Below, in pieces: positions 1-18,995 of a stretch of 64,000 bases of DNA. The stretch spans positions 533,808 to 597,807 of the forward strand of contig JBAQEZ010000003.1 in NCBI GenBank assembly GCA_049287005.1. Reading direction: 5' to 3'. A program made the translations under genes and the position numbers. This stretch comes from Candidatus Moraniibacteriota bacterium. Lineage in GTDB: Bacteria; Patescibacteriota; Minisyncoccia; Moranbacterales; UBA1568. Below the pieces are notes generated by a model, which was given only the letters and a program-made list of their open reading frames with translations, had not been told where the DNA came from and did no database searches. Position 1 is the stretch's first letter. Each line of letters opens with the position of its first letter.

Positions 1-1
1 T

Positions 2-1057
2 TTTTGGGAAAACTTGAAGGAACTGTACAAAAAAAACCCAGGGAATAGTGCGCTCAATGATGTTGAAGTGATTAGCATGATGATTGGTACGGGGAGCGAA
101 TTCGGAGTGATTGAGTTTGAGAAATGGTATGACATCGGCAATGTCGAGAGCCTGAATCGGGCTCGAACAGAAATCGAAGATTCTTTTCGTATTCTCGATA
201 AGTCAGACGAGTCGATATTTATTTTTGATAAGTTTGTCGTGAAGTTCTTCTTCGATGAGAACGTAGTAGCGCAGCGAGTAGCGAGAGGGGAGATTTTGCA
301 TGGGTTGGTTCCTGACATAGAAGGCGCAACGAAGAACTTCTATCGTTACAAATATGCGAAGGGGCATCTGTATTCGAAGGTCGCCACGCCAATAGACTTT
401 TCCTGTTTTCTCGAGTGGAGCAAGAAGAATCTCTGGAAACCGAGCAAGGAAGTGAGCGCAGAGGCTTTCAACAAGATCTGTTACGATTTCTACTATACGA
501 AGACAGTGGATCGCGTGGAAAAGTTTTTGGCCTCGCGCAAAGTGAAGGATACGGAAATCGTCATCAATGGTGAAAAGGTCCCTACCATCGAAAAAATGCT
601 CAAGATGATCGATTTCGCTGGGTTGTGTGATGCAGAGCAAAGTGGGTTTCATGGGGATTTTATTTTGGATAATCTCCTCAAGAGCAAGAATGGTTATGTG
701 CTGCTCGATTGGCGTCAGAATTTTGGAGGACTGTTGAAATCCGGTGATCTGTATTATGATCTCGCGAAACTGAATCATAATCTTACCGTGAACCATGAGA
801 TCGTGAACAGTGATCTGTTTACCATTGAAATAGGGAAAGATGAGGTAATCTGTGATATTTTTCGGAAAGAAAACCTGGTGCAGTGCCAGAAAGCCTTGTT
901 TGAGTTCTTGGAGAAAAAAGGCTATAATACTAGGAAAGTAAAGATTCTGACGGCTCTCATTTGGCTCAATATGTCACCGCTCCATCATCATCCGTTTGAT
1001 CTCTTTTTGTTCTATTTTGGAAAATTAAACCTCTGGCGAGCGCTCAATGAAAAGTAA
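2..1057 (+). CDS. 5'-truncated bifunctional sugar-1-phosphate nucleotidyltransferase (C-terminal end only) fused to an APH/choline-kinase-fold kinase
   Basis: The frame is open to the window edge. The listed TTG start at 14 is probably internal. The N-terminal segment GTGSEFGVIEFEKWYDIGNVESLNRA matches the G..W.DIG..SL..A end of NTP-transferase domains. Downstream, HGDFILDNLL...LLDW is the Brenner HGDxxxxN catalytic motif of APH/choline/anomeric-sugar kinases. Confidence 0.5.
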   Translation, partial: FWENLKELYKKNPGNSALNDVEVISMMIGTGSEFGVIEFEKWYDIGNVESLNRARTEIEDSFRILDKSDESIFIFDKFVVKFFFDENVVAQRVARGEILHGLVPDIEGATKNFYRYKYAKGHLYSKVATPIDFSCFLEWSKKNLWKPSKEVSAEAFNKICYDFYYTKTVDRVEKFLASRKVKDTEIVINGEKVPTIEKMLKMIDFAGLCDAEQSGFHGDFILDNLLKSKNGYVLLDWRQNFGGLLKSGDLYYDLAKLNHNLTVNHEIVNSDLFTIEIGKDEVICDIFRKENLVQCQKALFEFLEKKGYNTRKVKILTALIWLNMSPLHHHPFDLFLFYFGKLNLWRALNEK

Positions 1058-1586
1058 TATGGAAAAGAAAACGATCAAAAATTTCATATTGGATGTGGAC
1101 GGAGTCTTTACGGATGGGAAGTTCTACTACACCATCGATGGCAAGGTGATGAAAAAATTCGGTCCGGAAGATAACGACGCACTTTCCCTTCTCAGAGACA
1201 AATTGCATCTTCATGCTATTTCAGGGGACAAGAATGGTTTCGCTATTACCAAGAGACGTATTGCTGACGATATGAAGCTCCCACTCGATATGGTGAGTAC
1301 CTTCGAAAGAATGGAGTGGATTCGAGAACGTTTTGATCCGGAAGAAACGATTTACATGGGAGATGGGATATTCGATCCGCTTGTCTTCAAGCACGTTGCC
1401 TACAGCATCGCGCCAGCCAATGCTTTTTATAAGACAAAGGACCTGGCTGATTTCGTGACCAATGCCCGCGGAGGAGAAGGTGCGGTAGCTGAAGCTTGTC
1501 TCCATATACTGGAGAAGTTTTTCGACGAATCATTCGATGTCCATTCATTGAGTTTTGAAAAAGGCTCAGGCGTTTGGAAAAAATAA
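1047..1586 (+). CDS. HAD-superfamily phosphatase of the KdsC family (Kdo-8-P / sialic-acid-9-P phosphatase-like)
   Basis: Has the LDVDGVFTDG motif I and the typical 179 aa length. GDGIFD is motif IV. Confidence 0.7.
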   Translation: MKSNMEKKTIKNFILDVDGVFTDGKFYYTIDGKVMKKFGPEDNDALSLLRDKLHLHAISGDKNGFAITKRRIADDMKLPLDMVSTFERMEWIRERFDPEETIYMGDGIFDPLVFKHVAYSIAPANAFYKTKDLADFVTNARGGEGAVAEACLHILEKFFDESFDVHSLSFEKGSGVWKK

Positions 1587-2298
1587 AGATACAACCATGT
1601 TTGAAAAACCAAATCCTATTGCGAAAAAATATGCTTCAATCGACCTCGCCGGACGCGAGGCTATAAATGAGCAAAATATTCAAGAATTTCTGGGTTTCAG
1701 CGAAGATCTTAAAAGAAATTTTACTGGTGTGATGGAGTTTGTGCTTGAATCCCAGCAAGTGGTGCAAGAGCGTATTCTGTCCCGGCTTGAAACAATCGGC
1801 GCCGAATGTGGAATAGATTTTTTACTTGCCGGCAGAGATTATCCTCTCCACTCTACGATTCTAGAAGGAAGAGCTGGAGAAGATTTAGATGAGCAGGAGA
1901 GAAATGATACTTTTGTAAGTATAGGTGAGACAGAGGGCTTTAAACAGGCCATGACACCATTAGAAGGGATAGATTTAGAATACAAGTATTTGCTTATTGA
2001 TAAGGGTAATATACTCTTGACGGCTATGGATATCCCGGATGAAATAATAAAAGCGAGAGCAAGTCTGTCCGCACTGTACGCTGATTATGGGTTGGCACCA
2101 CGACCGCTTGAAAATATTTTGCACATAAGCCTTGCGAGAATTGTAAAATTACCTAAAGATGGAAATACTGCAGTAATGTTAGAAAAATATAAAAGAGAAA
2201 TGATAAAATTACGCCATGCAATTTCTGTGGATCCGCTTGTATTGGAAGTATCAAATATTTCAAAGGGGTCAACTTATGAAATTTTAACTCGCTCATAG
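1555..2298 (+). CDS. hypothetical protein
   Basis: Long ORF co-oriented in the operon with no recognised motif. The start may be the internal Met at 1597. Confidence 0.35.
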   Translation: MKKAQAFGKNKDTTMFEKPNPIAKKYASIDLAGREAINEQNIQEFLGFSEDLKRNFTGVMEFVLESQQVVQERILSRLETIGAECGIDFLLAGRDYPLHSTILEGRAGEDLDEQERNDTFVSIGETEGFKQAMTPLEGIDLEYKYLLIDKGNILLTAMDIPDEIIKARASLSALYADYGLAPRPLENILHISLARIVKLPKDGNTAVMLEKYKREMIKLRHAISVDPLVLEVSNISKGSTYEILTRS

Positions 2299-2362
2299 AA
2301 ACTTGAAACATTATGGAATATTTCGATGTGCATTCGCTTGATTTGGAAAATGGATCAGGTGT

Positions 2363-3403
2363 ATGGAAAAAACAGTAATAAATGTAAAGAAATTAAATAG
2401 TATGGAGTCAAGTATCTCTCAAAAAGCTGCTTATCAGATCAATATGAATGATGCGGTAAGCGCGAAAGAATCAGATTGGGTTCAAGCATGTATTGACGCA
2501 GCAAAAAATAATGATTATTATCGTACCTTTCGTTCTTCCGTGGCTTTTCAACGTGTTATTGAGGGAACTCCAATAGTAGGGGGAATATGGAATTTGAAGC
2601 GTTTATTGAGGAGGGATAAGTTTCTTAGGGCTCTGCCTCTTATTCAGCTTTCAGATACAGTGGGATTGCCTCTAAATATGATTGATTTTATAGCGCCTTC
2701 CTCTGGTGAAAAAAACGTTCCGACAACGTACAGTCTTTCCCCGACGACGATCCGCTATGCAAACAATGCTTTGAATTGTTCCGCTCTCTTCGGGGACACC
2801 ATTTTTAATGGCGAAGTTGAGGTATGTGAAATTGGCTCGGGATACGGAGGCGAGTGTAAGGCTTTCAATGATTTTGCAGTGACTCTATCCGGATCAAGGC
2901 TAGGGGAGAAGTGGCACATATATGATCTTCCGTCTTCCCGGGGAATAATCGAGCGATTTTTATCTCATTTTCATTATTCGGCTAGCTTTGATGAATTAAA
3001 TTCTTCCTCGAAGAATAGCAACGATACCCTTGTAATCTCAAATGGGGCGTTTTCGGAAATGACAGGCTCTTTACTTGATGCATATTTTGACTCTGTAATT
3101 GCCACTGCTAAATTCGGATATTTTATAACAAACTTTGAGATTCATTCTGCGCCACATGGAGGGTGGACTACGGCAGAATTTATCAAGCGCTTACGAACAT
3201 GTGGAAAAACAGATGTAGCGATTTTGCCTACCGCTGAATATCTCAGCTACTTTGATCAGCAAGCGAAAAGCAGTTTAATTGTTTTTGGTCATACTGGCGC
3301 GAGAAAAGATAGTACAACATTCAGTGACATTGTTAAGATACGCTTGATCTCAATTATGAGGGAGGCCTTAGGTGCTTTTCAGCGGTTTTTTATGAGACAC
3401 TAA
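2363..3403 (+). CDS. hypothetical protein, possibly a divergent methyltransferase-like protein
   Basis: VCEIGSGYGGE resembles a class-I SAM-binding motif I. Otherwise unrecognised. Confidence 0.35.
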   Translation: MEKTVINVKKLNSMESSISQKAAYQINMNDAVSAKESDWVQACIDAAKNNDYYRTFRSSVAFQRVIEGTPIVGGIWNLKRLLRRDKFLRALPLIQLSDTVGLPLNMIDFIAPSSGEKNVPTTYSLSPTTIRYANNALNCSALFGDTIFNGEVEVCEIGSGYGGECKAFNDFAVTLSGSRLGEKWHIYDLPSSRGIIERFLSHFHYSASFDELNSSSKNSNDTLVISNGAFSEMTGSLLDAYFDSVIATAKFGYFITNFEIHSAPHGGWTTAEFIKRLRTCGKTDVAILPTAEYLSYFDQQAKSSLIVFGHTGARKDSTTFSDIVKIRLISIMREALGAFQRFFMRH

Positions 3404-3427
3404 GAAGTTATTTACTATCGCTATTTT

Positions 3428-4555
3428 ATGCAATACATTACTCGAAAAAAAAGCGTTGTTACCGGAAAAGATAATCTTGAACCACTCTATACATTTAAAG
3501 ATTTTCCGGTATTTTTTGGCTGCGTAGAACACGGCTCCGAGAAAGATATCAAAGCTGATATGAGTTGGGCAATATGTCCGGAATCGGGTGTAATTCAGCT
3601 TGATAAGCTCATCCCGCTTGATATCCTCTATCAGGAACAGCACGTTGACGGAACCGGTCCGACATGGGAGCAGTATTACCATGATTTTGCCGATTATATA
3701 AAGGAGCAACCCTCGAAGGATATTCTTGAGATCGGTGGCGGTGCCGGGAAGCTCGCCGATATTTTCACGGGCATTACCGAGGAAACGTCTTGGACTCTCG
3801 TTGAACCCAATCCTTTGCACCCGGGGAACGATCGGGTCAAGATTACACGTGCTTTTTTTGATGAAAATTTCAAGTATGAGGGAGATGTGGATACGGTGGT
3901 TTTTTCACAGGTAATGGAACATGCCTACGATCCGAATCAATTCGTGAAATCCATAGCGAAATTCCTGAAGCCAGGTCAAAAACTCATTTGTGCCTATCCG
4001 AATCTGAAATTGTGGCTCGAAAATAAATACACGAACGCAATAAATTTCGAACATACGATGTTTTTAACTGATTATTTTGTCGATTATCTTTTTGTGAAGC
4101 ACGGCTTTGTCATAAAGGACAAGTACTTCTATAAGGATCATAGTATATTCTATGTTGCGGAAAAGCTGGAACAGCCGGCAGTCGCAACCTTCGAAAACCA
4201 ATACATGGAATACAAAAAAATATTCAATGATTTCATCCAATATCACCAGGATATCGTGAAGAACTTGAATGAGAAAATATCCGATTTTGATGGCGAGGTG
4301 TATGTCTTCGGGGCTCATATTTTTGCGCAGTATCTTTTCGCGTTCGGATTAGACCAAGCAAAAATTGTTTCACTGCTTGATAATTCAGGTCTGAAAAAAG
4401 AAAAGCGTCTTTATGGTACAAACTTGATCGTTCATGGACCGGAAATTCTGCGAGGTAAGGGGAAAGTCGGCGTAGTGTTAAAGGTCGGTATATATCGGGA
4501 TGAGATATTGAAGCAGCTGAAAGAAATTAATCCAGAGGTCGTAATCTTTGAATGA
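3428..4555 (+). CDS. class-I SAM-dependent methyltransferase
   Basis: ILEIGGGAGKLADIF is motif I. An acidic residue follows at the end of beta2 in ...LVEPNP. Likely a sugar O- or C-methyltransferase. Confidence 0.55.
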   Translation: MQYITRKKSVVTGKDNLEPLYTFKDFPVFFGCVEHGSEKDIKADMSWAICPESGVIQLDKLIPLDILYQEQHVDGTGPTWEQYYHDFADYIKEQPSKDILEIGGGAGKLADIFTGITEETSWTLVEPNPLHPGNDRVKITRAFFDENFKYEGDVDTVVFSQVMEHAYDPNQFVKSIAKFLKPGQKLICAYPNLKLWLENKYTNAINFEHTMFLTDYFVDYLFVKHGFVIKDKYFYKDHSIFYVAEKLEQPAVATFENQYMEYKKIFNDFIQYHQDIVKNLNEKISDFDGEVYVFGAHIFAQYLFAFGLDQAKIVSLLDNSGLKKEKRLYGTNLIVHGPEILRGKGKVGVVLKVGIYRDEILKQLKEINPEVVIFE

Positions 4556-5696
4556 AATGGTTACCGCAATCTGCAATGTTTTTATAAATTCGGATCTTAA
4601 GCTTAGATTGTTCAAACAGACATTTCCGCGTGTATACGGTGTTTCTGATAATTGGTTGATAAATATTCGAGGAAAGTACCGCGAGGATGTCGCAAGATAT
4701 GTTCAGGAAACTTTTGAGGATGCCGAAAAGAATTGTATTTTTTTCTCTGGACTCGACGATAGAGATTGGGCGAAAAGCACTCGGAAAATACTTGCGTGTT
4801 CAAAATATGACTATGTTTATGTTTTCCTTGAAGATCACTTCCTTTTAAAACCACTTGACCATTTCAGGGATGTCATTCAGGATATGATGGATTCGAAGAT
4901 TGAATATTTCGGATATTCCTTTTTTAATATCGGTTTGAGTGTTCAGAGTGCCGAAGGACTTTATCCCGATTACTCAAAACATTTTTTCTCTTTTCAATTG
5001 GAGAAGAAAAATATTGAGTCTCTAAAGAAGAGTAACCGTCATTTCTACCCCTATTCATTGGCAGGGATTTGTACGAAAAAATATTTTCAAAAGTTATTAA
5101 TAATTGAGAATAAACTTGTAATAAAAGTACCCATCTTTGTGCAGGCAGCGATGGAAAACATCTTCTTTTTTTATCCAAGAAATCGCACTTTTTGGTTCAA
5201 TATAAATAAGTTTACTTCGAAATTAGGTATTCGATTTGCTATCTATCCTTCGGAGACTCCTTTTAATTTGGAAAAATCGCTCTTTGATTGCGATTTGGAG
5301 CTATTGCCACTTAAAGTAGGCGGTTTGAGGGAAGAGCTTTTCGCTAATTGGGATGATGACAACAAGCTGAGCAATTCATCTTTGATCAAGCGTGGCTTAT
5401 ATCCTGAATATCTTCGTAGCAAGAATCCGATTACAACCAAGCTGATCGATGGTAAGGATTTTGCCCTTGCCAAAGGTCAGAGCAGTAGTCATCAGTATTG
5501 TCCTGATGTCAGTCGGGTTCAAGAATTGCCAATGAAATATATCCATATTAAGAAAGGGTCGCTTAAAGTATCATCAATCAGAGAATCATTCGTATTGAAT
5601 GAAGGGCAATCTGTATGGATTTTTGCGAATATTCCTCACGTTTTATGCGCTGATGAGGATTGTATGTTTCAAGTGTATTTAGACAGCGGTTTGTAG
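4548..5696 (+). CDS. hypothetical protein
   Basis: 382-aa ORF in the operon with no recognised motif. Confidence 0.4.
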   Translation: MNEMVTAICNVFINSDLKLRLFKQTFPRVYGVSDNWLINIRGKYREDVARYVQETFEDAEKNCIFFSGLDDRDWAKSTRKILACSKYDYVYVFLEDHFLLKPLDHFRDVIQDMMDSKIEYFGYSFFNIGLSVQSAEGLYPDYSKHFFSFQLEKKNIESLKKSNRHFYPYSLAGICTKKYFQKLLIIENKLVIKVPIFVQAAMENIFFFYPRNRTFWFNINKFTSKLGIRFAIYPSETPFNLEKSLFDCDLELLPLKVGGLREELFANWDDDNKLSNSSLIKRGLYPEYLRSKNPITTKLIDGKDFALAKGQSSSHQYCPDVSRVQELPMKYIHIKKGSLKVSSIRESFVLNEGQSVWIFANIPHVLCADEDCMFQVYLDSGL

Positions 5697-5759
5697 TAGA
5701 ATAGATATGCTATTGAAATAATTTGTAAAAAAGCATTGGTTATTTTTGATATTAAGAAT

Positions 5760-6737
5760 ATGAAAAAAACAGCACTCATAACAGGAATTTTAGGTCAGGA
5801 CGGTCCATATCTTGCCAAGCTATTATTGGAAAAGGACTATGAAGTTTATGGGCTCATAAGGCGTTATGCTAACCCGAATTTTAGCAATACTGATTATCTT
5901 GGAATTACAGATAAGATCAATTTCATATCAGGAGACATGACAGATGAGTCCTCATTGATTAATCTTATTAAGACCATCCGTCCAGATGAAGTGTATAATT
6001 TGGCAGCGCAGTCTTTTGTCGGAGCATCATGGGATCAATCGAAGGTTACAACGGAGATAAACGCATTGGGCGTTCTTTACTTACTCAATGCGATAAAATA
6101 TTTTTCGCCAACGACGAAATTTTATCAAGCATCAACAAGTGAAATGTTTGGGAACAGTCACACCGAAGGATTACAGACAGAAGAAACTCCCTTTCATCCG
6201 AGAAGCCCGTACGCTATCGCTAAACTCTATGCGTATTGGATGACTATCAATTTCAAGGAGAGCTACGGTATGTATTGTGCAAATGGAATACTTTTCAATC
6301 ATGAATCTCCTATTCGAGGAATGGAGTTTGTCACAAGAAAAATAACCGATGGCGTGGCTAGAATAAAATTAGGACTAGCAAAAGAAATACGCTTAGGGAA
6401 TCTTGACAGTAAGCGCGACTGGGGATTCGCTGGTGATTACGTAGCGGCAATGTGGCTTATGCTGCAACAAGAAAATCCTGATAATTATATTGTTTCAACC
6501 GGAGAAACTCACTCGATCAGGGATTTTCTTGATATCGCCTTTAAGTATGTTGGCATCAAGGATTGGAAGAAATATGTAAAGCTTGATCCGCGATTCAAAA
6601 GACCGGCCGAATTGTTCTCATTACATGGAACAAGTGATAAAGCGAAAAAAGTATTGGGATGGGAACCAAAGGTGAAATTTGAAGAGTTAGTCAAAATGAT
6701 GGTTGATGCAGATATGAAAAGATTATCAGAAAAATAA
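5760..6737 (+). CDS. gmd: GDP-mannose 4,6-dehydratase
   Basis: Has MKKTALITGILGQDGPYLAKLLLEKDYEVYGLIRR and YxxxK (YAIAKLYAYW). These are highly characteristic of GMD. The start is placed at the internal Met. The longest ORF begins at 5736. Confidence 0.85.
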   Translation: MKKTALITGILGQDGPYLAKLLLEKDYEVYGLIRRYANPNFSNTDYLGITDKINFISGDMTDESSLINLIKTIRPDEVYNLAAQSFVGASWDQSKVTTEINALGVLYLLNAIKYFSPTTKFYQASTSEMFGNSHTEGLQTEETPFHPRSPYAIAKLYAYWMTINFKESYGMYCANGILFNHESPIRGMEFVTRKITDGVARIKLGLAKEIRLGNLDSKRDWGFAGDYVAAMWLMLQQENPDNYIVSTGETHSIRDFLDIAFKYVGIKDWKKYVKLDPRFKRPAELFSLHGTSDKAKKVLGWEPKVKFEELVKMMVDADMKRLSEK

Positions 6738-6741
6738 TCTC

Positions 6742-7620
6742 ATGGAACTTGAGACTGAAACAATGAGAGAAAACAAGCCGTTGCTTTCTATTGTGATGGC
6801 TGTTTACAATAGCGGAGAATATCTTCGTGAATCAATTGAAAGCGTGTTGTCGCAGACATACACGCATTTTGAGTTTATCATTGTTAACGATGACTCTTCT
6901 GATGGAAGCGAAGGCATTATTCGTGAATATGCTGCAAAAGATAAAAGGGTCGTTTATTTGAAAAATGATGCGAATCTGAGACAATCTGAAACGAGAAATA
7001 AGGCAATTAGGCTTGCCAAAGGGGAGATGATTGCAATTGTCGATTCTGATGATATCTGTGTTGTAGATAGGTTTGAGAGGCAAGTAAATTTTTTTAATGA
7101 GAATCCTGATACGGATGTTTTAGGTACTGACTACTGCATATTTTTTAATGACACGGTTAAAGAATGTGATTCGGTCGTATCGGCAAACGCAGATGATATT
7201 TATGATGCGAAACCGCCGGTGCATAACCCGACTTGCTTGATGAAGAAGAATGTTTTCATGCAGTATGGGTATTATGACTCGAAATATGATAATGCTGAAG
7301 ATGTTGAGTTATGGTTCCGATGGTTTTCACAAGGCGTACGTTTTGCTAACCTTCATGAGGTGCTTTATAAGAAAAGGACGCACGAAGGATCAGTGAGCAT
7401 ATCGAAGATTATGGATCAGATTTATCTGATGCTCAAAGTAGATATGATCGCGATATTTCGGAATCATATACGATTTACGCGCAAGGGGTATTTACATGTA
7501 CTGGAGCAGTTGTTTTACTTGGTGTATCTTTTTCTAAAACTTGATCGGCTTTATGTAAGAAACAAAGTCGTTCATAATATAAAACGGAGGGCCCAGAGAT
7601 CAGGCTCAGCTGTAAACTAA
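6742..7620 (+). CDS. family 2 glycosyltransferase
   Basis: LSIVMAVYNSGEYLRESIESVLSQTYTHFEFIIVNDDSSDGS. DSDD gives the DxD motif. Confidence 0.75.
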   Translation: MELETETMRENKPLLSIVMAVYNSGEYLRESIESVLSQTYTHFEFIIVNDDSSDGSEGIIREYAAKDKRVVYLKNDANLRQSETRNKAIRLAKGEMIAIVDSDDICVVDRFERQVNFFNENPDTDVLGTDYCIFFNDTVKECDSVVSANADDIYDAKPPVHNPTCLMKKNVFMQYGYYDSKYDNAEDVELWFRWFSQGVRFANLHEVLYKKRTHEGSVSISKIMDQIYLMLKVDMIAIFRNHIRFTRKGYLHVLEQLFYLVYLFLKLDRLYVRNKVVHNIKRRAQRSGSAVN

Positions 7621-10278: not shown

Positions 10279-11412
10279 CTATTTGATCGTTTCTATCAGG
10301 AAATTCTCCCATATCTTTGCTATTTTTTCAAGTGAAAAAGAGTCCTGAACGATTATTTTTGCTTCTTCGGATAATTGTTTTCTCATTACTTCATTTTCTT
10401 GCATCTGTTTAATCGCCTGAACAATGGCCAAACTATTTTCTATAGGAACAAGTAGTCCTGTTTTTTTGTTTTCTATCAAAACTTTATTCTCTGGAATATC
10501 GGTGGTGATGACAGGGATTCCTGAGGCCATAGCTTCGAGGATGGCGTTGGACTGCCCTTCGAAGAGTGTGGGTAGCACGAAAAGGTTGGATATTTTCAGA
10601 AGTTTCGGAACATCGGTTCGTCGGCCGAGGAAGAGAATGTTTTCTTTGGACTGGTAGTCTTTAATTTTATTTTCGAGGCTATTTTGTTCTGAGCCTTCGC
10701 CAACGAGGAGGAGCTTGTATTTGAATGGCGGAATGGTTGTTATCGTTTCATTGTTTCTTGAATACAACCGTTCAAAAGCTTCAAGGAGATAACGGTGACC
10801 CTTATTGATATGCAGGTTGGCGACACAGATGATGACGAAATCGTCAGAAGCGATGCTGAGGGATTTTTTGAGTTCCGGATCAGGAGTGATGGAATCGAGG
10901 TGTTCGATATCGATACCGTTTGGGATGATAGTTATCTTTTCTGGGTGCACACCGATATGCTGGACATAGAAATCTTTGACGGCTTCAGAGTTGGCGAGGT
11001 ACTGATTGACGAGTGGTTTGGTGATCCATTCGAGGATGCGTGCGATGAGATATTTCGGATGATTGTAGGTAGTACGGAGGGAAGGGACGATAGGCGCCTT
11101 TGTAACAGTACGGAGTGCGAGGCGTCCGAGTATATCGGCATGGAAGAGGTACGTGATGATGATATCAGGCTTTTCTTCTCGGATGAGTTTGCGAAGGCGC
11201 AGAATGCCAGGAATATCGAAAGGGCTATTGCAATGAATCGTTTCGACCGTGATGCCGGCTGAGACGAATTTCGGAATCAGGTCCCCGAGCTCTTTTAAAG
11301 TGATGACTTTGTGTTCGAAATTATCGAGCAAAGGTAGTGTTCGAAGGAGCATATTCTCGCACCCGCCATTACTGAGCGATTGGATAACATGAAGAATTTT
11401 CTTCTTGGCCAT
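10279..11412 (-). CDS. family 4 glycosyltransferase
   Basis: EGQSNAILEAMASGIPVITTD. Confidence 0.75.
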   Translation of the reverse strand: MAKKKILHVIQSLSNGGCENMLLRTLPLLDNFEHKVITLKELGDLIPKFVSAGITVETIHCNSPFDIPGILRLRKLIREEKPDIIITYLFHADILGRLALRTVTKAPIVPSLRTTYNHPKYLIARILEWITKPLVNQYLANSEAVKDFYVQHIGVHPEKITIIPNGIDIEHLDSITPDPELKKSLSIASDDFVIICVANLHINKGHRYLLEAFERLYSRNNETITTIPPFKYKLLLVGEGSEQNSLENKIKDYQSKENILFLGRRTDVPKLLKISNLFVLPTLFEGQSNAILEAMASGIPVITTDIPENKVLIENKKTGLLVPIENSLAIVQAIKQMQENEVMRKQLSEEAKIIVQDSFSLEKIAKIWENFLIETIK

Positions 11413-11433
11413 GATATTTCGGAAATAATGAGG

Positions 11434-12522
11434 TCAACGGGAGCCAGTGCAGGTGATTCCGGCTTCTGGGTGTTCGTATGCCTGAATATTTTTCAAAGCA
11501 GCATCGGCAAACCATTGTTTTATTTCCTCAACATAGTAATAATTGCTCTTCGGTGTTGCCAGCACGTCGAAAGCATCATTGAGCTTCATATTGAAAGAAA
11601 AATTGGCATAGTATGAGAAGGGGAGTTTTTTGGCAAGAGATTGGAAGTTTATCCTTTCGAGAAGTTTGCCAAAGAGATTGATGAGATGAACGATCCCTCC
11701 GGGGAGGTAAGAAAGCTTGAAAAGCAGCGGCTTTGGGAGCTTTTTCAAAATATCACGGAGAGGCTCGTAGAAATAGAGGGCGCGTGCGTTGTTGCGACGA
11801 TTATAGACCCAGATGACCATTTCTCCTCCGTTTTTAAGTACCGTGGGAAGTTTCAAAAAGCCTTGTTTCGGCTGAGGAAGATGATGAAGTACTCCGATGG
11901 AATAGGCGAGGTCAAAAGTATCCTGAAATGGCATCTGATAGATATCCGCTTGGACGATACAGGCATTCTCGATGTTTTTGGTTAGTTCGTAAGCAACCTC
12001 GACGCTTTCTCCGAGGTCGGTTCCGAATGAGACTTCCGTACCGGAGAGGGCTGCCCATTTGGTGAATCTCCCTGATCCGCAACCGATATCGAGCGTAGTC
12101 TTTCCTTTGATGTTGGCCTCGGTAATATAGGGGCCGGCGAAATGATAGAAATTATTTTTTTCGTAAGTATTCTCCTTGTAGATGTATTTCCACTCGTAAG
12201 CGAAGCTTTCGGCGGTTTTCTTCTGATGTTTCCAGAAGGCATCGAGATCAGGGATATTATCGATAGCTTTCTGCCATTCGGTGCGTATATTTTCAGGAAG
12301 TTTTTCTTTCCAAGTTTTGAAAAAGTCCTGACGGGTCTGAAGGATATTCGTCTTGAGTTCGTCTATGAGGATTCTCGGGATGCCGTTTATGATCGGATAC
12401 CAGGAATTTATTGTTGTGATGAGTCCGGCAGTGATTTGTGGACCAGTTTCTTCGAACACGGTGATTTCGAATGGATTATGAGATATCGGATCGGAGAGAT
12501 ATGAGAGATGATTTCGTCGCAT
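11434..12522 (-). CDS. class-I SAM-dependent methyltransferase
   Basis: TLDIGCGSGRFTKWA is motif I. Confidence 0.65.
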   Translation of the reverse strand: MRRNHLSYLSDPISHNPFEITVFEETGPQITAGLITTINSWYPIINGIPRILIDELKTNILQTRQDFFKTWKEKLPENIRTEWQKAIDNIPDLDAFWKHQKKTAESFAYEWKYIYKENTYEKNNFYHFAGPYITEANIKGKTTLDIGCGSGRFTKWAALSGTEVSFGTDLGESVEVAYELTKNIENACIVQADIYQMPFQDTFDLAYSIGVLHHLPQPKQGFLKLPTVLKNGGEMVIWVYNRRNNARALYFYEPLRDILKKLPKPLLFKLSYLPGGIVHLINLFGKLLERINFQSLAKKLPFSYYANFSFNMKLNDAFDVLATPKSNYYYVEEIKQWFADAALKNIQAYEHPEAGITCTGSR

Positions 12523-12557
12523 GGTTTCAGTATTTATTGCTTAATTTAGTCATTATA

Positions 12558-14450
12558 TCATGATGGAAAGTATTCCTCAAACCAAAGTTCGAGAGTGACG
12601 AGCGCCCAGATATGGTAGCCAAAATCAACCTTGGTCTCACAATGTGTGTCGAGGAGTTTTTTGATAGCCTCTTTTTTGAAAAGACCGCGATTGATAGCTG
12701 TATCCGATAGGAGTATTTCGTAGGCATACTCTTTCAATTCATTTCGGAACCAAGAGTGGATAGGAATACCGAAACCCATCTTGGGACGGAACATCACTTC
12801 GTCGGGGATGATGCCATGGAGAGCTTCTTTGAGAATATATTTTTTATTATTTCGTCCTTTCAATTTGAAACGAAACGGTATTTGTGCGGTGAGTTCGAGA
12901 AATTCATGATCGAGGAAAGGAGATCTACCTTCGAGGGATACTGCCATCGTATCGATATCAACTTTTGTCATCAAATCATCAGGGAGATATGTTGCAAAGT
13001 CAGCGTAGGCTGCTTGTTCCACCTTGTTCTGGGATCCTGATTCTTGGAATTTGCTCGCGACGATATCGTAAGAATCTGAGTCTTTAAACCTCTCCTTCAT
13101 TTCATTGGTATAGATTTTCTCCTTCATTTCATTGGTAAAGTAGCAGATATAGTCCACATAACGGTGGTTATATGGTTTAGAGAGACTTCGCGCGAAGCGA
13201 TAGGATCGATCAAAGAAGGTTGTCTGGAATACATGTGCTGCAAGTTTAGCGAGAGGAAGAATGATGATTTTGTGAAGAGGGAGAATTCTGTCATAGAGGA
13301 GGGCGAATTTGTGCACGCTGTAACGACCATATCCTGCGAAGTTCTCATCTCCGCCGTCACCGTTGAGTGCGACGGTGACGTGATCGCGGGTGAGCTTGGC
13401 GACATAGTAGGTGGGTAGGGCACTGGAATCGGCATAGGGTTCCTCATACTGCCGTACGAGCATCGGGAGGAGATGGATAGCATTCGGTTTCACGATGAAT
13501 TCCGTATGATCCGTTTTGAATTTGTCCGCGATGATTTTCGCGTATTTCAGTTCATTGAATTTTTCTTCCTCGAACCCTATCGAAAACGTTTTTATCGGAG
13601 TTGTGGAATTTCTGGCCATCAGAGCGACGATGGCACTGGAATCGATGCCGCCGGAGAGAAACGCACCGATAGGAACATCGGAAATCATACGGAGCTTGAC
13701 TGATTCTTCCAGTTTATCGATGATACGCTTTTTCCACTCCTCTTCGGAAAGATCAAGCTTTTTCGAATAATCGAGCTTCCAATACCTCTCATTTTCCACT
13801 TTCTTTGTTTTGAGATCAATGTACAAATAATGGGCCGGTTCCAGCTTCTTAATACCGACAAAGCCTGTTAGTGGCGCTGGAACGTACTGGAGCGTCAAAT
13901 AATGGTGTATAGCGAGGTAATCAGGCTCTTTATGGTATTCGGGCTGGGTCAGGATCGCTTTGAGCTCTGAAGCGAAAAGAAAGACGTTGTCATCCATATA
14001 GTATTTGAATGGCTTTTTCCCGACTCTGTCTCTGGCACAGAAAAGCGTTTTTTCTTGTTCATCATAGATAGCAAAGGCAAACATCCCGCGCAGATGTTTC
14101 AGGCATTCTTTTCCATACTTATCGTAGAGAGCCAGGATGACTTCCGTATCGGAATGCGAGGTAAATGTGTAGCCGTTTTTCTCGAGTCCCGCGCGTTTTT
14201 CCTGAAAGTTGTAGATTTCCCCGTTGAAGACGATCTCATAGCGGTCAAGGGAGCGCATCGGCTGATGGCCGAGCGGGGAGAGATCGATGATGGAGAGGCG
14301 GCGATGGCCGAGGCCGACTTTTTTATCAGGTGAAATATACACCCCGCCATCATCCGGCCCGCGGTGTTTGATGGCTTCGTTCATCGTCTCAACTCCTTCC
14401 ATTGAAACGTCCTTTGACGAGAAGGAGATTTTACCCGCTATCCCGCACAT
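12558..14450 (-). CDS. asnB: asparagine synthase (glutamine-hydrolysing) family amidotransferase, WbpS-like
   Basis: Starts with MCGIAG, the N-terminal nucleophile Cys2 of class-II glutamine amidotransferases. The 630 aa length fits. SGGIDSS is the PP-loop ATP pyrophosphatase motif. Confidence 0.85.
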   Translation of the reverse strand: MCGIAGKISFSSKDVSMEGVETMNEAIKHRGPDDGGVYISPDKKVGLGHRRLSIIDLSPLGHQPMRSLDRYEIVFNGEIYNFQEKRAGLEKNGYTFTSHSDTEVILALYDKYGKECLKHLRGMFAFAIYDEQEKTLFCARDRVGKKPFKYYMDDNVFLFASELKAILTQPEYHKEPDYLAIHHYLTLQYVPAPLTGFVGIKKLEPAHYLYIDLKTKKVENERYWKLDYSKKLDLSEEEWKKRIIDKLEESVKLRMISDVPIGAFLSGGIDSSAIVALMARNSTTPIKTFSIGFEEEKFNELKYAKIIADKFKTDHTEFIVKPNAIHLLPMLVRQYEEPYADSSALPTYYVAKLTRDHVTVALNGDGGDENFAGYGRYSVHKFALLYDRILPLHKIIILPLAKLAAHVFQTTFFDRSYRFARSLSKPYNHRYVDYICYFTNEMKEKIYTNEMKERFKDSDSYDIVASKFQESGSQNKVEQAAYADFATYLPDDLMTKVDIDTMAVSLEGRSPFLDHEFLELTAQIPFRFKLKGRNNKKYILKEALHGIIPDEVMFRPKMGFGIPIHSWFRNELKEYAYEILLSDTAINRGLFKKEAIKKLLDTHCETKVDFGYHIWALVTLELWFEEYFPS

Positions 14451-15307
14451 TATTTTTTCTTTAATAGGATATTAAAGGATAAATTTCGCAAATCGTATTC
14501 TGAATATTTTTTTGTCAGATTTTTAGGCAATTTTTTATCAAAAAGGATGTTTTGTTCCAAATCAAGAATTTCCAGGTTTTTATCATGTATCAATTTTTCA
14601 TAATCACTCAATCTTTTCCTGTTGACATATTCTCCGGTATTTTTGAAAAGCTTGTCAAACCAATAATCGCTGAAATTCAAGAACCAGATGCTTTTTTGTG
14701 AAAAAATGTGGTCTCGGAGGTCCACTTGATGATTCATGATCCCGTCTCTTCGAAGAACACGCGCCATTTCAGTAAAACAGAGGTCGAGATCGTGCACGTG
14801 TTCCAATACGGCGCAGGAATAGATGATATCTATGGACTCATCAGGCAGTTTGTAGGAGGAATCTTGTCCTATTTTGATGAATTCAATGAATGCTGGATTG
14901 TATGCGTACTGGTTAGCCGTATTCTTTATGAAATATTTACTTATCAGAACACCATTGTCTTCTAAAAGTTTTCTATATGAAAGAAGCTGTTTGTTCGTTA
15001 TGAATGTGTGAGAAATATTTTCAATCACGTAATATTTTTTTGCCCCATATTTTAATGCCAAGAGGCCAAAACCGATTGATCCACCCGGTCCTAACTCCAA
15101 TATATTTTTGTCTACAATTTGAGAAGTCCCGCCGATTTTTTCTAAAAAACCTTTGAATTGGGCTATCGAATATGCTAGATGCTTTTCATGGAAAGCATAC
15201 GGATTGAATAAGTGTTGCTCGATAAATTGTCGCATTCCTGGGAATATCGAGAAGAGAATATTCTCGAGAAAGACGAGAGGCACTGTGATGAGGGCTTTCC
15301 ATCTCAT
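14450..15307 (-). CDS. class-I SAM-dependent methyltransferase
   Basis: ILELGPGGSIGFGLLALKYGAKKYYVIE. The start is placed at the Met whose ATG forms an ATGA overlap with the stop of the upstream GT4 (15304-15307). Confidence 0.65.
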   Translation of the reverse strand: MRWKALITVPLVFLENILFSIFPGMRQFIEQHLFNPYAFHEKHLAYSIAQFKGFLEKIGGTSQIVDKNILELGPGGSIGFGLLALKYGAKKYYVIENISHTFITNKQLLSYRKLLEDNGVLISKYFIKNTANQYAYNPAFIEFIKIGQDSSYKLPDESIDIIYSCAVLEHVHDLDLCFTEMARVLRRDGIMNHQVDLRDHIFSQKSIWFLNFSDYWFDKLFKNTGEYVNRKRLSDYEKLIHDKNLEILDLEQNILFDKKLPKNLTKKYSEYDLRNLSFNILLKKK

Positions 15308-16458
15308 ATATTTTTGAAAATTTTGAGGTATTGCTTTATTGTTTTTTCCCAATCGAATCTTTGAAATACTGCCGCATGACCAGCTTCTGCCAAAAGGGTC
15401 CTTTTGTGAATATCAGTGATAAGAAGTCCGATTTTTTCTACGATTCTAGCTTCGTTCGGGGCGTCAATAAGAAACCCGGTTTTTTCATCAATGATGATTT
15501 CGTCCGCACCTTCATTTTTGGTAGCGACGATGGCGCATTGGCAATACATCGCTTCCAATAACGAGGTTGATAGACCTCCTCCAGGCAAAGAAGAATGAAT
15601 GTAGATGTCGCTACTTTTCAGTATAGCAAGGACCTCCTCTCTTGGGAGATTACCAAGCATTTCTATCGGCAGATTTGCTGTGAGTGACTTGAGGCGTGTG
15701 AAATCTTCCCCGTCACCCATAATAAGAAAAACTATTTTCGCCCGCGTCACTTCCGGTAACGCGCGTATAGCTTCGATAGTAAATTCGATACCTTTCCATT
15801 TATACAATCGCGCAGCAGTACTGATGATGATTTTCCCTGGGTATTTTTGTTTGATGGTGTCATCTGCGCTGATAGTATCGATACTGGCGAAATCGATACC
15901 TCGGTAAATGATGGGTGATGGTCGTTTATCGAATCTGACTACAAAGCCTTGCACGGCACGGGAAATAGAAATATTGATATTCGAAAAACAGAAAATAATT
16001 CTACCGAAAGTAAGATCATAGACTTTCGCAACAGCGGATTTTAGGGGATTGGAGAGTTTTACAAAGTCGGAGCCGTGTTCTATATGAATCCAGTATGTTC
16101 TGGCAAGTTTTGCGTATATGAGAGCAAGGAGAGAAGAGAGGAAGAAACGAGTTCGTGAAATGACAATATCGAAGTCAGAATGGAAAAGAATGATGAAAGG
16201 ATTCCAAAACCCAAGACTCCAAAATTTCGGAACAGGATAATTGGGAATGATCTCAAATGCCGGATAACGGACAATCTTTACTCGGTCGTATTTTATTTCC
16301 TCAACATTCCGGGTGTAAGGAATATTCGGTGTAAAAACGACAACATCTGTTCCATTTTGAGCCAGATGCTTGTTGAATTCATCACTATGGGTTTCAAGCC
16401 CTCCTATGTGAGGAGGATAATAGGGGCAAAAAACAAGTATTCTCATAGTATCTTCCAA
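15304..16458 (-). CDS. family 4 glycosyltransferase
   Basis: GT-B C-terminal domain with SSLPGGGLSTSLLEAMYCQCAIVAT. Confidence 0.7.
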   Translation of the reverse strand: MEDTMRILVFCPYYPPHIGGLETHSDEFNKHLAQNGTDVVVFTPNIPYTRNVEEIKYDRVKIVRYPAFEIIPNYPVPKFWSLGFWNPFIILFHSDFDIVISRTRFFLSSLLALIYAKLARTYWIHIEHGSDFVKLSNPLKSAVAKVYDLTFGRIIFCFSNINISISRAVQGFVVRFDKRPSPIIYRGIDFASIDTISADDTIKQKYPGKIIISTAARLYKWKGIEFTIEAIRALPEVTRAKIVFLIMGDGEDFTRLKSLTANLPIEMLGNLPREEVLAILKSSDIYIHSSLPGGGLSTSLLEAMYCQCAIVATKNEGADEIIIDEKTGFLIDAPNEARIVEKIGLLITDIHKRTLLAEAGHAAVFQRFDWEKTIKQYLKIFKNI

Positions 16459-18563
16459 ATGACAATGTTATCTGCTGTATCTTCGTATACTCGTTGAAAT
16501 TTATCAGGGTATTGGTCAAAAATCAACTTTCTTGTGCCCTGCATATTCTCTATATAATAAGGCCTATTGAGGTAGGGATTTTTCTCGTTTGCTTTGGAAT
16601 AGTATATGTATAGTTTTTTCTGATTTTCGGGGTCTATTTTTCCTATACGAAGTAGGGATGCGAGTGCTGTTGATTCTTGTATATTGTCATCAAGGAGTAC
16701 CAAGATGGAATCCCTCTGTTCTTGTAGGTTTTTGTTGCTTAGCTCCTCAAGATTTTGTTTGCTCGTTTTTATAAAAAGTGAATAATTATTTTCTAAACTC
16801 TCTCTGTTGATCTTAAAATTGTTAATTTCAGTGAGAGCTATATTGATATCATAATAGAAGTCCGTTGGCACTATTTGGATTTTTGAATTCCCATAATATT
16901 GCAATAAATTTCCATCCATATCGGTGAATAGGATTCGGTTGTTTGGCAAATTGCTCCTTATCCATTCGGCTGAAGAAAGCTTTTCATTCGTTATCATATA
17001 TTGCTTCATGCCATTGATATACAACGCCCCTCCAATACTTGTTACTATTCCCAGTAATATCATCATTGAAATAATCTTGATTTTTCGGGTACCAATTTTC
17101 GTAATAATAAAAAAGAGCGCCAATGAAAAAATACCAGTAAATACCCATGATCTATCCGGGAGAAGGGCTACATTGGAAAGTCGCGGTAAAACTTCAGAGA
17201 TTGAAAAAAATATCAAAAAACACACACTAAGGACGATGATTTCTCTACGCCTCCTCAAATTAATGGTAAGCTTTCTGAACTCATCATTTCTTATAACGAA
17301 ATAAACAAAAGCAAATAATAGGATGAGGATAGCGGGTCCGGCGTAATAAATATAATATTTGAGTACCCCGACAGTATCGCCCCAACCCATACTCTGTCCG
17401 TTCATATTTATGTAATAGGCAGGAAAAAGAAAATTTAATTTCATTACGAATATACTTTGCATGACCATTTCAGTCCAATGGAGAATGAAATCAAGTTGAT
17501 TTTTTAGGAAGTAAGCGTTTGAAGTGATGAGGAGTGCTATCAATAATGTAATTAATTTGTTTTTCAGTATTGCTTCAAGTATAAATTTTCGGTTGAAAAT
17601 CAAGGTGACCAATAGCCAAACAGCGAATATTATCGCCGCCATTTCATGATAGAAGAAGCCGAGAAAGGCCGTTATTCCGGCTAGATAGTAAAAAATATTC
17701 TTATTGAACAGCCATGAATAAATCAAAAAGAAGAAGAAATAGTAGATTGATATTATCGAAATCGCCTGGGGAATCGGAGTTTGTGAGTATAGAATCGTCG
17801 AAGAACTGGTCAGTGGTAGTAATAAGATTATCGTTTGCAGGAGTTTCGAAGGAAATTTTCTTGCTATGAGCCAGGCGGGGATCAGTGTCAATATCGAAAG
17901 GAGAGGAAGGACATATTTAAAAGATGCATATAAATCGATATTGGCTCCTTGATTGAGGAAGTAGAGAAGTGATGAAAAAATCGGTCGATCAGCCATCAAC
18001 TGTACAATCACCCCATTATCAAAATCTTTAGCATATCTTTGGATCCAGTAAAATGGATCAAGATCTGGCAGGGCATAGTAGGCGGAAAAGATTATAAAAG
18101 TGATTGAGATATTCAAAATAAAAACCCAGAAAAGCGGCGAGGAGACGATTGCGTTGGTGATACTCCCGCGTGGCTTATCAACGGCGAATTGAAATCTATT
18201 TGCGAAATCTCCTCTTTTAAGATAGCAGCTCATTGCCAGTATCAAAAAAATAAAGAAAGAGTTTGCTGCTGGTAATGATTTAAATAAGATGTGGAATTGC
18301 GAAAATTCTATTGTAAGCAATAGCGGCACGAACAATAGGCTCGTTACTGAAGAAAGGCTCAGCATCTCCCAGAGATCAAAATTATATTTGAAAAATAATT
18401 GAACTATAGCAGCGATATTGAGTCCACCGAGTACAAGAATAGCAATCAACTCAATGAAAGAGCGAAGGATGCGGAAAACAAGAAAAGATTCCAAGCCGTC
18501 AAACCATTGGAACAAGAAATATAAGACAAAAAAAACAACATTCAATTTTATTAATGTTTTCAT
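16443..18563 (-). CDS. large polytopic integral membrane protein, putative glycan polymerase or GT-C-like transferase
   Basis: 706 aa with more than 12 hydrophobic segments. It lies in the AT-rich island and has no recognised catalytic motif. Confidence 0.45.
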   Translation of the reverse strand: MKTLIKLNVVFFVLYFLFQWFDGLESFLVFRILRSFIELIAILVLGGLNIAAIVQLFFKYNFDLWEMLSLSSVTSLLFVPLLLTIEFSQFHILFKSLPAANSFFIFLILAMSCYLKRGDFANRFQFAVDKPRGSITNAIVSSPLFWVFILNISITFIIFSAYYALPDLDPFYWIQRYAKDFDNGVIVQLMADRPIFSSLLYFLNQGANIDLYASFKYVLPLLSILTLIPAWLIARKFPSKLLQTIILLLPLTSSSTILYSQTPIPQAISIISIYYFFFFLIYSWLFNKNIFYYLAGITAFLGFFYHEMAAIIFAVWLLVTLIFNRKFILEAILKNKLITLLIALLITSNAYFLKNQLDFILHWTEMVMQSIFVMKLNFLFPAYYINMNGQSMGWGDTVGVLKYYIYYAGPAILILLFAFVYFVIRNDEFRKLTINLRRRREIIVLSVCFLIFFSISEVLPRLSNVALLPDRSWVFTGIFSLALFFIITKIGTRKIKIISMMILLGIVTSIGGALYINGMKQYMITNEKLSSAEWIRSNLPNNRILFTDMDGNLLQYYGNSKIQIVPTDFYYDINIALTEINNFKINRESLENNYSLFIKTSKQNLEELSNKNLQEQRDSILVLLDDNIQESTALASLLRIGKIDPENQKKLYIYYSKANEKNPYLNRPYYIENMQGTRKLIFDQYPDKFQRVYEDTADNIVIWKIL

Positions 18564-18581
18564 TGGGGGACTTTATTTGAG

Positions 18582-18932
18582 CTAATTTTTTATCTCACTA
18601 ATTTCTTCAAGAGATTTTTCTCTCGTGACGGTCGTGATCTGTTGTTCCAAACGTTCGATGGCGGAGAGGAGTTTGAAAATCATCAGGAAAATGAAGATGA
18701 ATCCGGTCAAGATGACGGCATTGATATTGTCAGCGATACCGATGAGAGAAGCCAGCGTGTTCGTGACAGTTGGGAAAAGGACGATCGTCGCCATCCCTCC
18801 CCAGATGAACACTCGCGCGGAGAGTTTCAGAATCGATTGTCCGCTCTGCTGTTTCAGGAATTTTGCAGATCCCTGATAGATCATGACGCCGGCAATAACG
18901 AGGATGACGATTTGATAGAGAGCGAGATTCAT
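18582..18932 (-). CDS. small 3-4 TM membrane protein, DUF2304/GtrA-like partner of a GT2 polyprenyl-phosphate glycosyltransferase
   Basis: 116 aa with three clear TM helices. It sits immediately downstream of a short DPM1-like GT2. This is the typical context of DUF2304 and GtrA family proteins. Confidence 0.45.
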   Translation of the reverse strand: MNLALYQIVILVIAGVMIYQGSAKFLKQQSGQSILKLSARVFIWGGMATIVLFPTVTNTLASLIGIADNINAVILTGFIFIFLMIFKLLSAIERLEQQITTVTREKSLEEISEIKN

Positions 18933-18933
18933 A

Positions 18934-18995
18934 GAACAAAAGTTTATAAAGTTAGAAAGTTAAGAAAGTAAGAGAGTCAGAAGTCTATAAAGTTA
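18934..18995. repeat. intergenic repeat, copy 1: tandem AAGTyTATAAAGTTA units with a GAAAGTTAAGAAAGT block
   Basis: AAGTTTATAAAGTTA (18940-18954), AAGTTAAGAAAGT, AAGTCTATAAAGTTA (18981-18995). It lies between the stop of the GT2 at 18993 and the start of the DUF2304 gene. Confidence 0.55.

Follow-up and report, generated by a model that had tools for sequence, protein, structure and literature searches.

What does it signify when the base composition of a bacterial glycan gene cluster changes abruptly in the middle of a run of closely packed genes? The question is raised by a 64,000-nucleotide stretch from Candidatus Moraniibacteriota bacterium (assembly GCA_049287005.1, contig JBAQEZ010000003.1, positions 533,808 to 597,807), a member of the Candidate Phyla Radiation (CPR), or Patescibacteria. 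The surfaces of these bacteria mediate an epibiotic lifestyle and are almost uncharacterised. The whole 64-kb stretch will be referred to as the window, and its left 18.6 kb, which is poor in guanine and cytosine (GC), as the AT-rich block. The original prediction regarded this block as a tailoring module of 18.5 kb that had been acquired horizontally and grafted onto a conserved core. The answer that we consider probable is a different one, namely that the left 18.6 kb is the old, lineage-wide specificity half of a Moranbacteria surface-glycan locus, which became AT-rich through cassette exchange and not through a recent graft.

The Compositional Step and Its Position

A maximum-likelihood Bernoulli scan of the window yields a single dominant change-point (log-likelihood ratio, 286), located near 19,140; GC content is 39.9% for positions 1–19,140 versus 50.1% for 19,141–64,000. 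The reference for composition is the adjacent 45 kb of the same glycan cluster, and all 64 kb consist of glycan-biosynthesis genes. In 1-kb windows, GC runs at 35–46% up to 19 kb, in place of the 28–40% originally quoted for this side, and mostly at 47–56% beyond it. Gene by gene, the left side spans 34–46%, and values of 27–29% are reached only by isolated 200-bp windows. Mean GC at third codon positions (GC3) is 0.43 for the 17 left genes versus 0.61 for the 35 genes from the DUF2304 gene rightward (Mann-Whitney p = 1.7e-8), and only 3 of these 35 have a GC3 under the left-hand maximum.

Viewed in 200-bp windows, the transition is complete within ≤600 bp, and the change is therefore stepwise and not gradual, the two outcomes between which a sliding-window check had been proposed to decide. 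Other measures shift along with GC. GC-normalised tetranucleotide usage, compared in equal 9-kb blocks, correlates at r = 0.91–0.94 between right-hand blocks and at r = 0.83–0.85 between left and right, while the two left halves correlate at only r = 0.86, no better than left with right. The residues Phe, Tyr, Met, Ile, Asn, and Lys make up 36.4% of the left proteins versus 30.1% of the right ones, and within the family 4 glycosyltransferases (GT4) alone the values are 36.7% versus 27.4%. With one dominant change-point and concordant GC3, tetranucleotide, and amino acid shifts, the sharp discontinuity that was reported first is borne out, with corrections to its extent and position.

The left block is heterogeneous in itself, and the genes of the window can be arranged in tiers (GT, glycosyltransferase; MT, methyltransferase; suffix letters distinguish genes of one family). 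The lowest tier, at 34–41%, includes the GT-C gene, GT4_a, GT4_c, MT_b, and MT_e together with the remaining genes of the block; asnB, MT_d, and GT4_b have 44–46%, and the core has ∼50%. The GC3 of asnB is 0.53 versus 0.68 for ugd on the right side. An amelioration argument built on GC1, GC2, and GC3 was also tried and dropped, since both halves deviate in the same direction from the published codon-position regressions, which makes the argument non-discriminating.

The step itself was originally placed at the intergenic spacer 18,934–18,995. It lies instead at 18,564–18,581, the 18-bp gap between the start of a GT-C gene (16,443–18,563, minus strand) and the stop of the DUF2304 gene (18,582–18,932, minus strand), because the latter has a core-like GC3 of 0.60. 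GC3 is 0.395 on the GT-C side of this gap and 0.598 on the DUF2304 side, a jump that the 200-bp profile bears out. In two related loci, L013 and L021, the best change-point falls ≤35 bp from the same junction between the GT-C slot and the DUF2304 gene. The AT-rich spacer proper, at 18,933–18,992, contains a 19-nt imperfect direct repeat (repeat D17), whose 11-mer occurs in two copies there and in one elsewhere with one mismatch (expected, 0.63). This repeat was examined as a recombination scar or conserved element and ruled out, for the spacers of relatives are unrelated and range from 14 to 144 bp. Some of these spacers have repeats of their own: the one in L023 (∼10,660–10,800) carries the short tandem motif GGAGAAT five times, and those of L016, L020, and L021 carry GTTAACTGTTAAC-like repeats; none of these motifs is related to the repeat in the window.

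Twelve minus-strand genes, from 8,379 to 21,552, span the step, with gaps of ≤60 bp across it. For this part, the description of a co-directional string running over the step is correct; it fails for the nine genes at 14–8,369, which are on the plus strand and converge on the minus-strand string. Position 1 of the window is inside a gene, so that the left edge of the block is outside the window.

Conservation of the Block among Relatives

The relatives were studied as loci, labeled with the letter L and a number, among them a set from 42 species-level genomes that is centred on the GT2 gene at 18,993–19,685. L051 is from the metagenome-assembled genome (MAG) MAG_322, with L023 probably adjoining it, L059 is a Logan contig, and L057 and L058 belong to GCA_028699965.1. 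The GT2 protein is 61–79% identical over its full length in 42 genome loci, with 85% over a partial match in L025, and its best-matching relatives are Moranbacteria MAGs. The closest relative thus has only 79% identity over the full protein; the exact-match contigs L001–L003 do not differ from the window. The locus also occurs, with 72–79% GT2 identity and with the same synteny as in the Moranbacteria-titled contigs, in many contigs that bear the title “uncultured Bdellovibrionales bacterium” (L004, L006, L008, L010, L012, and others), and these titles look like taxonomic mislabels.

The backbone of the block turns out to be widespread. The gene order GT2_c (20,797–21,552, at the head of the minus-strand string), GT2, DUF2304, a ∼700-amino acid (aa) membrane protein, GT4_c (15,304–16,458), asnB (12,558–14,450), MT_d (11,434–12,522), GT4_b (10,279–11,412), and sometimes MT_c (9,419–10,312), all on the minus strand in the window, is found in at least 15 Moranbacteria species representatives. 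Within these syntenic loci, identities are 68–85% for asnB, 64–77% for MT_d, and 40–66% for GT4_b, and the numbers of loci with ≥50% identity are 19, 16, and 12, respectively. For asnB, Mantel correlations are r = 0.74 with both GT2_PP and GT2_d (p = 0.0005) and 0.57 with ugd, as compared with 0.45–0.71 for pairs of core genes. Hence, asnB distances follow those of the core genes no less closely than the core genes follow each other, a test that took in conserved genes only, since the variable-slot genes are either sampled too thinly or have diverged too far. Three other lineages (L051, L059, and L057/L058) also have the full layout of two converging operons, with identities of 50–94%.

Marks of mobility were looked for as well. 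There is no tRNA in the 64-kb window, no integrase, transposase, or other mobility domain among the 50 window proteins scanned, and no long flanking or bounding repeat in the window, the left border of the block lying outside it. A blastn search for recent transfer tracts found none with more than ∼80–82% identity to any relative on either side of the step, and with no DNA tract above ∼80% there is no sign of a recent transfer. When metagenomes were scanned with MT_c as the anchor, just two short contigs came back, neither of which covers the distal block. A single horizontally acquired module of 18.5 kb is therefore not what the relatives reveal: at least 15 species share the syntenic backbone, asnB agrees with the core in its divergence, and mobility marks were not found. 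Alignment to related genomes had been suggested as a way to see if the block is variable or absent, and it is largely conserved, with only certain slots and the distal operon varying.

Regarding these slots, the GT-C membrane protein is just 23–39% identical in syntenic relatives, it has traded places with GT4_c in L013 and L022, and a non-homologous AT-rich open reading frame (ORF) of 534–582 aa takes its position in L015 and L021. The divergent GT4_c is 38–42% identical in most relatives and 54–57% in L013 and L022. MT_e (14,450–15,352, minus strand) and the 247-aa ORF unk247 (1,555–2,298, plus strand) are private to this genome, and neither has a homolog in any fetched locus; unk247 is also without a Pfam or NCBIfam match and has the lowest GC3 of the block, 0.32. 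Past GT4_b/MT_c, three kinds of content occur among relatives, namely a GT2-GT4-MT set that is co-directional, AT-rich genes of other sorts that are convergent, and a heptose-like operon as in the window, so that the distal heptose-like block is patchy among them. The closest relative shifts from gene to gene: at the amino acid level, MT_a (3,428–4,555, plus strand) is 94% identical to L057, versus 58% for the adjacent unk382 (4,548–5,696, plus strand); MT_a also matches L059 at 93% and L051 at 81%. The variable slots are the most AT-rich parts.

Mosaicism is not limited to the AT-rich side. The galE-type epimerase gene (19,691–20,677, minus strand) is 72–74% identical to homologs in the distant low-GC relatives L030, L034, and L042, and in the nearest relatives it is 30–34% identical or absent, so the GC-rich “core” is itself mosaic. 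As for the contrast drawn at the outset between a variable module and a conserved core, the slots do vary between relatives, but the core is not simply conserved. An indel inside the otherwise conserved backbone was also seen in MAG_322, where genes for a 980-aa methyltransferase, a PHP phosphoesterase, and a UbiA prenyltransferase are inserted between MT_d and asnB (L051, 15,946–20,470).

The drop in GC recurs too. Of the 20 backbone-bearing relatives, 18 have a GC that declines toward the same side, and in 7 relatives the best change-point is ≤700 bp from the end of the DUF2304 gene, strongly so in L013 and L021. MAG_322 has a similar drop of ∼10 points, from a core of 0.53–0.56 GC (L023) to a block of 0.41 (L051). 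In L057 the block lies within a uniform context of 0.33–0.42 GC, and L008, L019, and L033 display little or no drop. For most relatives, it is chiefly the variable genes that account for the drop, and the GC3 of asnB is about that of the core; the window differs from them in that asnB is lowered too.

A Glycosyltransferase Trio across the Step

Three consecutive genes lie at the step. The GT2 gene (18,993–19,685, minus strand; Pfam Glycos_transf_2), the first clearly GC-rich gene of the string, encodes a putative polyprenyl-phosphate sugar synthase that resembles PpgS and GacI: its best NCBIfam match is PpgS (E = 5e-45), with 153.6 bits and thus below the equivalog cutoff of 370. Located 60 bp downstream, the DUF2304 gene encodes a small membrane protein of the GacJ/Rv3632 type (PF10066, E = 3e-14, 53.7 bits versus a cutoff of 25.5). 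The third gene encodes a hyperdivergent, polytopic membrane protein of 706 aa, which abuts the step and has no match in Pfam, NCBIfam, or a PDB profile search; a Pfam search with 10 of its homologs was likewise blank.

For this protein, structure prediction was more rewarding. The AlphaFold model has a predicted local distance difference test score (pLDDT) of 89 and a predicted template modeling score (pTM) of 0.87, and the top Foldseek matches are PglB, STT3, ArnT, ALG9, and DPY19, with E values down to 5e-6 and a template modeling (TM) score of ∼0.4. All significant matches are GT-C enzymes, so that, judging by the model, we are confident that the 706-aa protein has a GT-C fold, even though a TM score of only ∼0.4 places the match at the superfamily level. 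The family has an LPDxDPxxW motif, in which L165, D169, P170, and W173 show no variation, and P166 and D167 almost none. It comprises 59 clusters, found only in Moranbacteria/CPR. From its modeled fold, the protein may represent an uncatalogued GT-C family. A literature search on Moranbacteria glycosyltransferases found nothing relevant.

In the GacI-GacJ-GacL system, a GT2 enzyme works with a DUF2304 protein to form the polyprenyl-phosphate sugar that a GT-C enzyme then transfers; the role of the DUF2304 proteins GacJ and Rv3632 as activator partners has been described (bioRxiv 10.1101/180810). Homology and fold suggest the like for the window: its GT2 and DUF2304 proteins would form such a sugar, which the adjoining GT-C enzyme would pass on outside the membrane. 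The trio mirrors GacI-GacJ-GacL, so the GC step appears to cut through a functional unit. By analogy, it presumably separates conserved donor synthesis from the transferase that sets acceptor specificity.

The Distal Operon and the Extent of the Block

The distal, plus-strand operon begins with the C-terminal two-thirds of a sugar kinase/nucleotidyltransferase fusion (1–1,057), which is cut by the window start and gives a weak Pfam match to APH. Its product is 79–84% identical to the C-terminal 348 aa of NTP_transferase proteins of 524–527 aa in L051, L057, and L059, and as the nucleotide homology begins at base 1 of the window, the window starts ∼175 codons into the gene. In the relatives, the genes for these 524–527-aa NTP-transferase/kinase fusions are preceded by SIS, ribulose-phosphate epimerase, and Wzx genes, and from this gene order the AT-rich block probably extends several kb outside the window. 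Next comes a phosphatase of the HAD family (1,047–1,586), KdsC/GmhB-like according to Pfam (Hydrolase_3) and to a KdsC-subfamily match in NCBIfam that is below the curated cutoff (E = 2e-20), and 84–91% identical in L051, L057, and L059. These genes, with the SIS, ribulose-phosphate epimerase, and fusion genes of the relatives and with the dehydratase gene GMD of the window, suggest a pathway of the GDP-(6-deoxy)heptose type with O-methylation. The distal operon would then make and methylate a GDP-activated (6-deoxy)heptose-like sugar, a function that we assign from homology.

The 346-aa product of unk346 (2,363–3,403) is weakly similar to NanM-like sugar O-methyltransferases (NCBIfam TIGR04371, E = 3e-5, below cutoff), and an ortholog, with 63% identity, is found only in L051 among the fetched loci. 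MT_a (Pfam Methyltransf_23) is highly conserved, and the nucleotide alignment to L057 that covers it, window positions 3,422–5,414, has ∼80% identity. The 382-aa protein unk382, which has no Pfam match, belongs to a family almost confined to CPR genomes (87 clusters, 28–79% identity), of which a few members are annotated as cupins; the named relatives are Moranbacteria, Andersenbacteria, Microgenomates, or Patescibacteria, plus one MAG labeled “Flavobacterium sp.” In the loci examined, unk382 always accompanies the MT_a, HAD, and kinase genes. GMD (5,736–6,737), a GDP-mannose 4,6-dehydratase-type gene (Pfam GDP_Man_Dehyd, E = 3e-123; NCBIfam gmd, 410.8 versus a cutoff of 415), has best matches of 86–93% identity, every named one from CPR, and five of the six contexts examined are unrelated CPR glycan clusters. 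It is too conserved for tracing its origin, because identity is 88–90% even to the homolog in a locus of 28% GC (L048). The operon ends with GT2_a (6,742–7,620) and MT_b (7,632–8,369), both assigned by Pfam, with orthologs of 60–64% identity in L051 and L059 only.

At the point of convergence, the distal end of the minus-strand operon is formed by GT4_a (8,379–9,500), 60–73% identical in L051 and L059, and MT_c, 64–76% identical in L057, L046, L013, L024, L059, and L019; both were assigned by Pfam.

Origin of the AT-Rich Block

How, then, might an old block have become AT-rich? In the explanation that we favor, some genes would act as anchors: the ppgS-like GT2 and DUF2304 genes at one end, a central group of asnB, MT_d, and GT4_b, and the kinase/nucleotidyltransferase, HAD phosphatase, and MT_a genes on the converging operon. 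Between them, the GT-C transferase, GT4_c, MT_e, unk247, and the GT2_a/MT_b/GT4_a region would be slots that diverge fast or are replaced, and the GC step would mark the point right after DUF2304 at which conserved donor-synthesis genes give way to acceptor-specific ones. The mosaic identities and the composition point to a likely cause in homologous recombination at the anchors, by which cassettes would have been exchanged repeatedly. If the donor pool consisted of Moranbacteria genes mostly lower in GC than a host of ∼50%, such exchange would leave the variable genes the most AT-rich (34–41%) and drag the adjoining conserved genes to 44–46%. Tiers of this kind are known from Salmonella O-antigen clusters, in which GT genes, wzx, and wzy are lowest in GC and the pathway genes intermediate, and conserved O-antigen genes have a lower GC the nearer they are to the specificity genes (Reeves et al. 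2013, PMC3715488).

Several points weigh against this explanation. The 50% baseline is taken from the right-hand 45 kb of the same cluster and is not genome-wide; it also leans on the name of the closest relative, L005, “FULL_48_12”, which, from the naming convention, we take to mean 48% GC. Among the left genes, GC3 and conservation are only weakly correlated (Spearman 0.47, p = 0.06), and GMD is both conserved and AT-rich. As no nucleotide match exceeds ∼80% on either side of the step, no actual exchange event is documented, and the high protein identity of MT_a at ∼80% DNA identity speaks of constraint, not of recency. Finally, the block keeps a GC3 of ∼0.4–0.55 in hosts with 0.37–0.55 local GC, which an intrinsic constraint would explain equally well.

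This last observation leads to the first of the alternatives, in which the block was inherited vertically, without transfer, and its AT-richness is kept by a local cause, for instance selection that favors weak or adjustable expression of the glycan-specificity genes, relaxed purifying selection in the face of AT-biased mutation, or reduced GC-biased gene conversion. The drop toward the same side in 18 of the 20 relatives and the GC3 range of the orthologs across hosts would both follow from such a cause, as would the finding that the fastest-evolving genes are the most AT-rich, and there is a precedent in wzx and wzy, whose low GC in many clusters still “needs explanation” (Reeves et al. 2013, PMC3715488). 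However, the non-homologous replacements, order swaps, and private genes testify to real gene turnover, the little or no drop in L008, L019, and L033 means that the bias is not obligatory, and the amino acid shift within one enzyme family fits a long residence at low GC more easily, which makes this alternative rather unlikely in our view. With orthologs of about equal GC3 in host contexts of ∼37% and of ∼55% GC, and with a step that returns at one gene junction in several species, the block behaves like a compositionally autonomous module. Related to this is the doubtful notion that its AT-richness is actively maintained by selection on composition at a defined operon position. Were it true, it could mean, for example, that genes for surface-glycan specificity are throttled or phase-varied in tiny genomes with few regulators, and the puzzle of AT-rich polysaccharide processing genes would become testable in a clade that spans 28–55% GC.

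We see still less chance for the arrival of the whole 1–18.6 kb as one piece from a lower-GC donor, grafted beside the conserved core, and regard it as very unlikely. It would readily account for a sharp step of 10 points with its tetranucleotide and amino acid differences, for an asnB that lags behind ugd in GC3 here and is about equal to it in most relatives, and for the best matches of block genes being to the low-GC Moranbacteria contig L057. For the backbone, it is contradicted by at least 15 species in which these genes adjoin the same core genes and by the co-divergence of asnB with the core; nor does one arrival suit a block that is heterogeneous, with halves correlating at r = 0.86, and whose best relative differs from gene to gene, or the lack, in the window, of a tRNA, integrase, transposase, flanking repeat, or tract above ∼80% nucleotide identity. 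The weakest alternative, an assembly or binning chimera that joined two organisms of different GC at ∼18.6–19.1 kb, is suggested by the abruptness of the step in a metagenome-assembled genome and has a next to negligible probability, as two independent Logan per-run assemblies, L002 and L003 (SRR28062869 and SRR28062879), span the junction at 17,222–19,820 and 18,087–20,252 with 100% identity, the same gene adjacency exists in more than 20 other genomes, and one operon-like string with gaps of ≤60 bp crosses the step.

Other Genes of the Window

In the Pfam inventory, the left block contains six methyltransferases, three GT4, one GT2, an asnB-type amidotransferase, GMD, the HAD phosphatase, and the kinase-like fragment, which substantiates the earlier description of this part as rich in tailoring enzymes; unk247, unk346, and unk382 have no family match at the Pfam default threshold. 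MT_c, GT4_b, MT_d, MT_e, GT4_c, galE, and GT2_c were all assigned by Pfam. The asnB product, a glutamine amidotransferase, matches asn_synth_AEB of NCBIfam above cutoff and the exopolysaccharide amidotransferase model TIGR03108 with E = 4e-190. Within the asnB coding region, at 13,091–13,140, a 23-nt sequence occurs twice, 27 nt apart and with 96% identity, which implies a tandem duplication of 9 codons.

The right side encodes GT2 and GT4 enzymes, two ugd, a run of PMT_2-type GT-C proteins, GH28, Wzx, Wzy_C, and an LCP ligase. The run, at 28,173–41,956, consists of seven large paralogous membrane proteins of 524–652 aa on both strands, six with PMT_2/PMT (GT-C) matches and one without, and the GH28 glycoside hydrolase gene (29,924–31,588) is embedded among them. 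RtcB RNA ligase and thymidylate-kinase-like genes, at 43,436–45,554 on the minus strand, lie within the central part of the glycan cluster, with a GT4 gene on one side and Wzx on the other, and the thymidylate-kinase-like gene is a low-GC pocket (42% GC, GC3 0.51) in the 50% region. Exact-protein look-ups for RtcB and galE returned no record.

Implications and Comparison with Known Systems

A textbook “GC-anomalous island” signal can mislead, for here relatives retain the anomalous DNA no less than they do the supposed core. If the favored explanation is right, the signal marks the variable, specificity-determining half of a surface-glycan locus and not a recent insertion. The Moranbacteria-restricted GT-C family, together with its GacI/GacJ-like donor module, becomes a candidate for deciding the specificity of the surface glycan. 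The phenomenon as such is well known; what is new is the instance in a CPR lineage.

Classical genomic islands share with the block a GC, tetranucleotide, and amino acid composition that is atypical relative to neighbouring DNA. Unlike them, it is syntenic in many related species and internally mosaic, and the window has no tRNA, integrase, transposase, or bounding direct repeats. A closer parallel exists for the trio at the step: as in GacI-GacJ-GacL of S. pyogenes and PpgS-Rv3632 of M. tuberculosis, the genes for a GT2, a DUF2304 protein, and a large GT-C membrane protein are consecutive and co-directional. The GT-C protein of the window differs from GacL in having no sequence similarity to it or to any Pfam family, its closest folds being PglB and STT3 at a TM score of only ∼0.4, and the GT2 differs from PpgS in scoring under the equivalog cutoff (153.6 versus 370).

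The most extensive comparison is with the O-antigen and capsule clusters of Enterobacteria. Differences are evident: the CPR host is without a known outer membrane or lipopolysaccharide, an LCP ligase gene at 59,002–60,231 hints at attachment to the wall or to another polymer, variation here is between species and not between strains or serotypes, and the low-GC half occupies only one side of a cluster that measures at least 64 kb. There are likenesses as well. As in those clusters, segments differ in GC, none of them reaching the presumed genome level; the lowest values belong to glycosyltransferase and membrane processing genes and intermediate ones to sugar-pathway genes; conserved genes beside the specificity genes are lowered in GC; membrane enzymes at fixed positions are highly divergent or non-homologous; and Wzx and Wzy_C genes are present in the window. 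The analogy drawn by the original prediction was thus apt, with the same tiered GC (PMC3715488) and with anchors flanking divergent or non-homologous slots, and an O-antigen-style architecture of conserved anchors and AT-rich variable slots would thereby be extended to the CPR/Patescibacteria.

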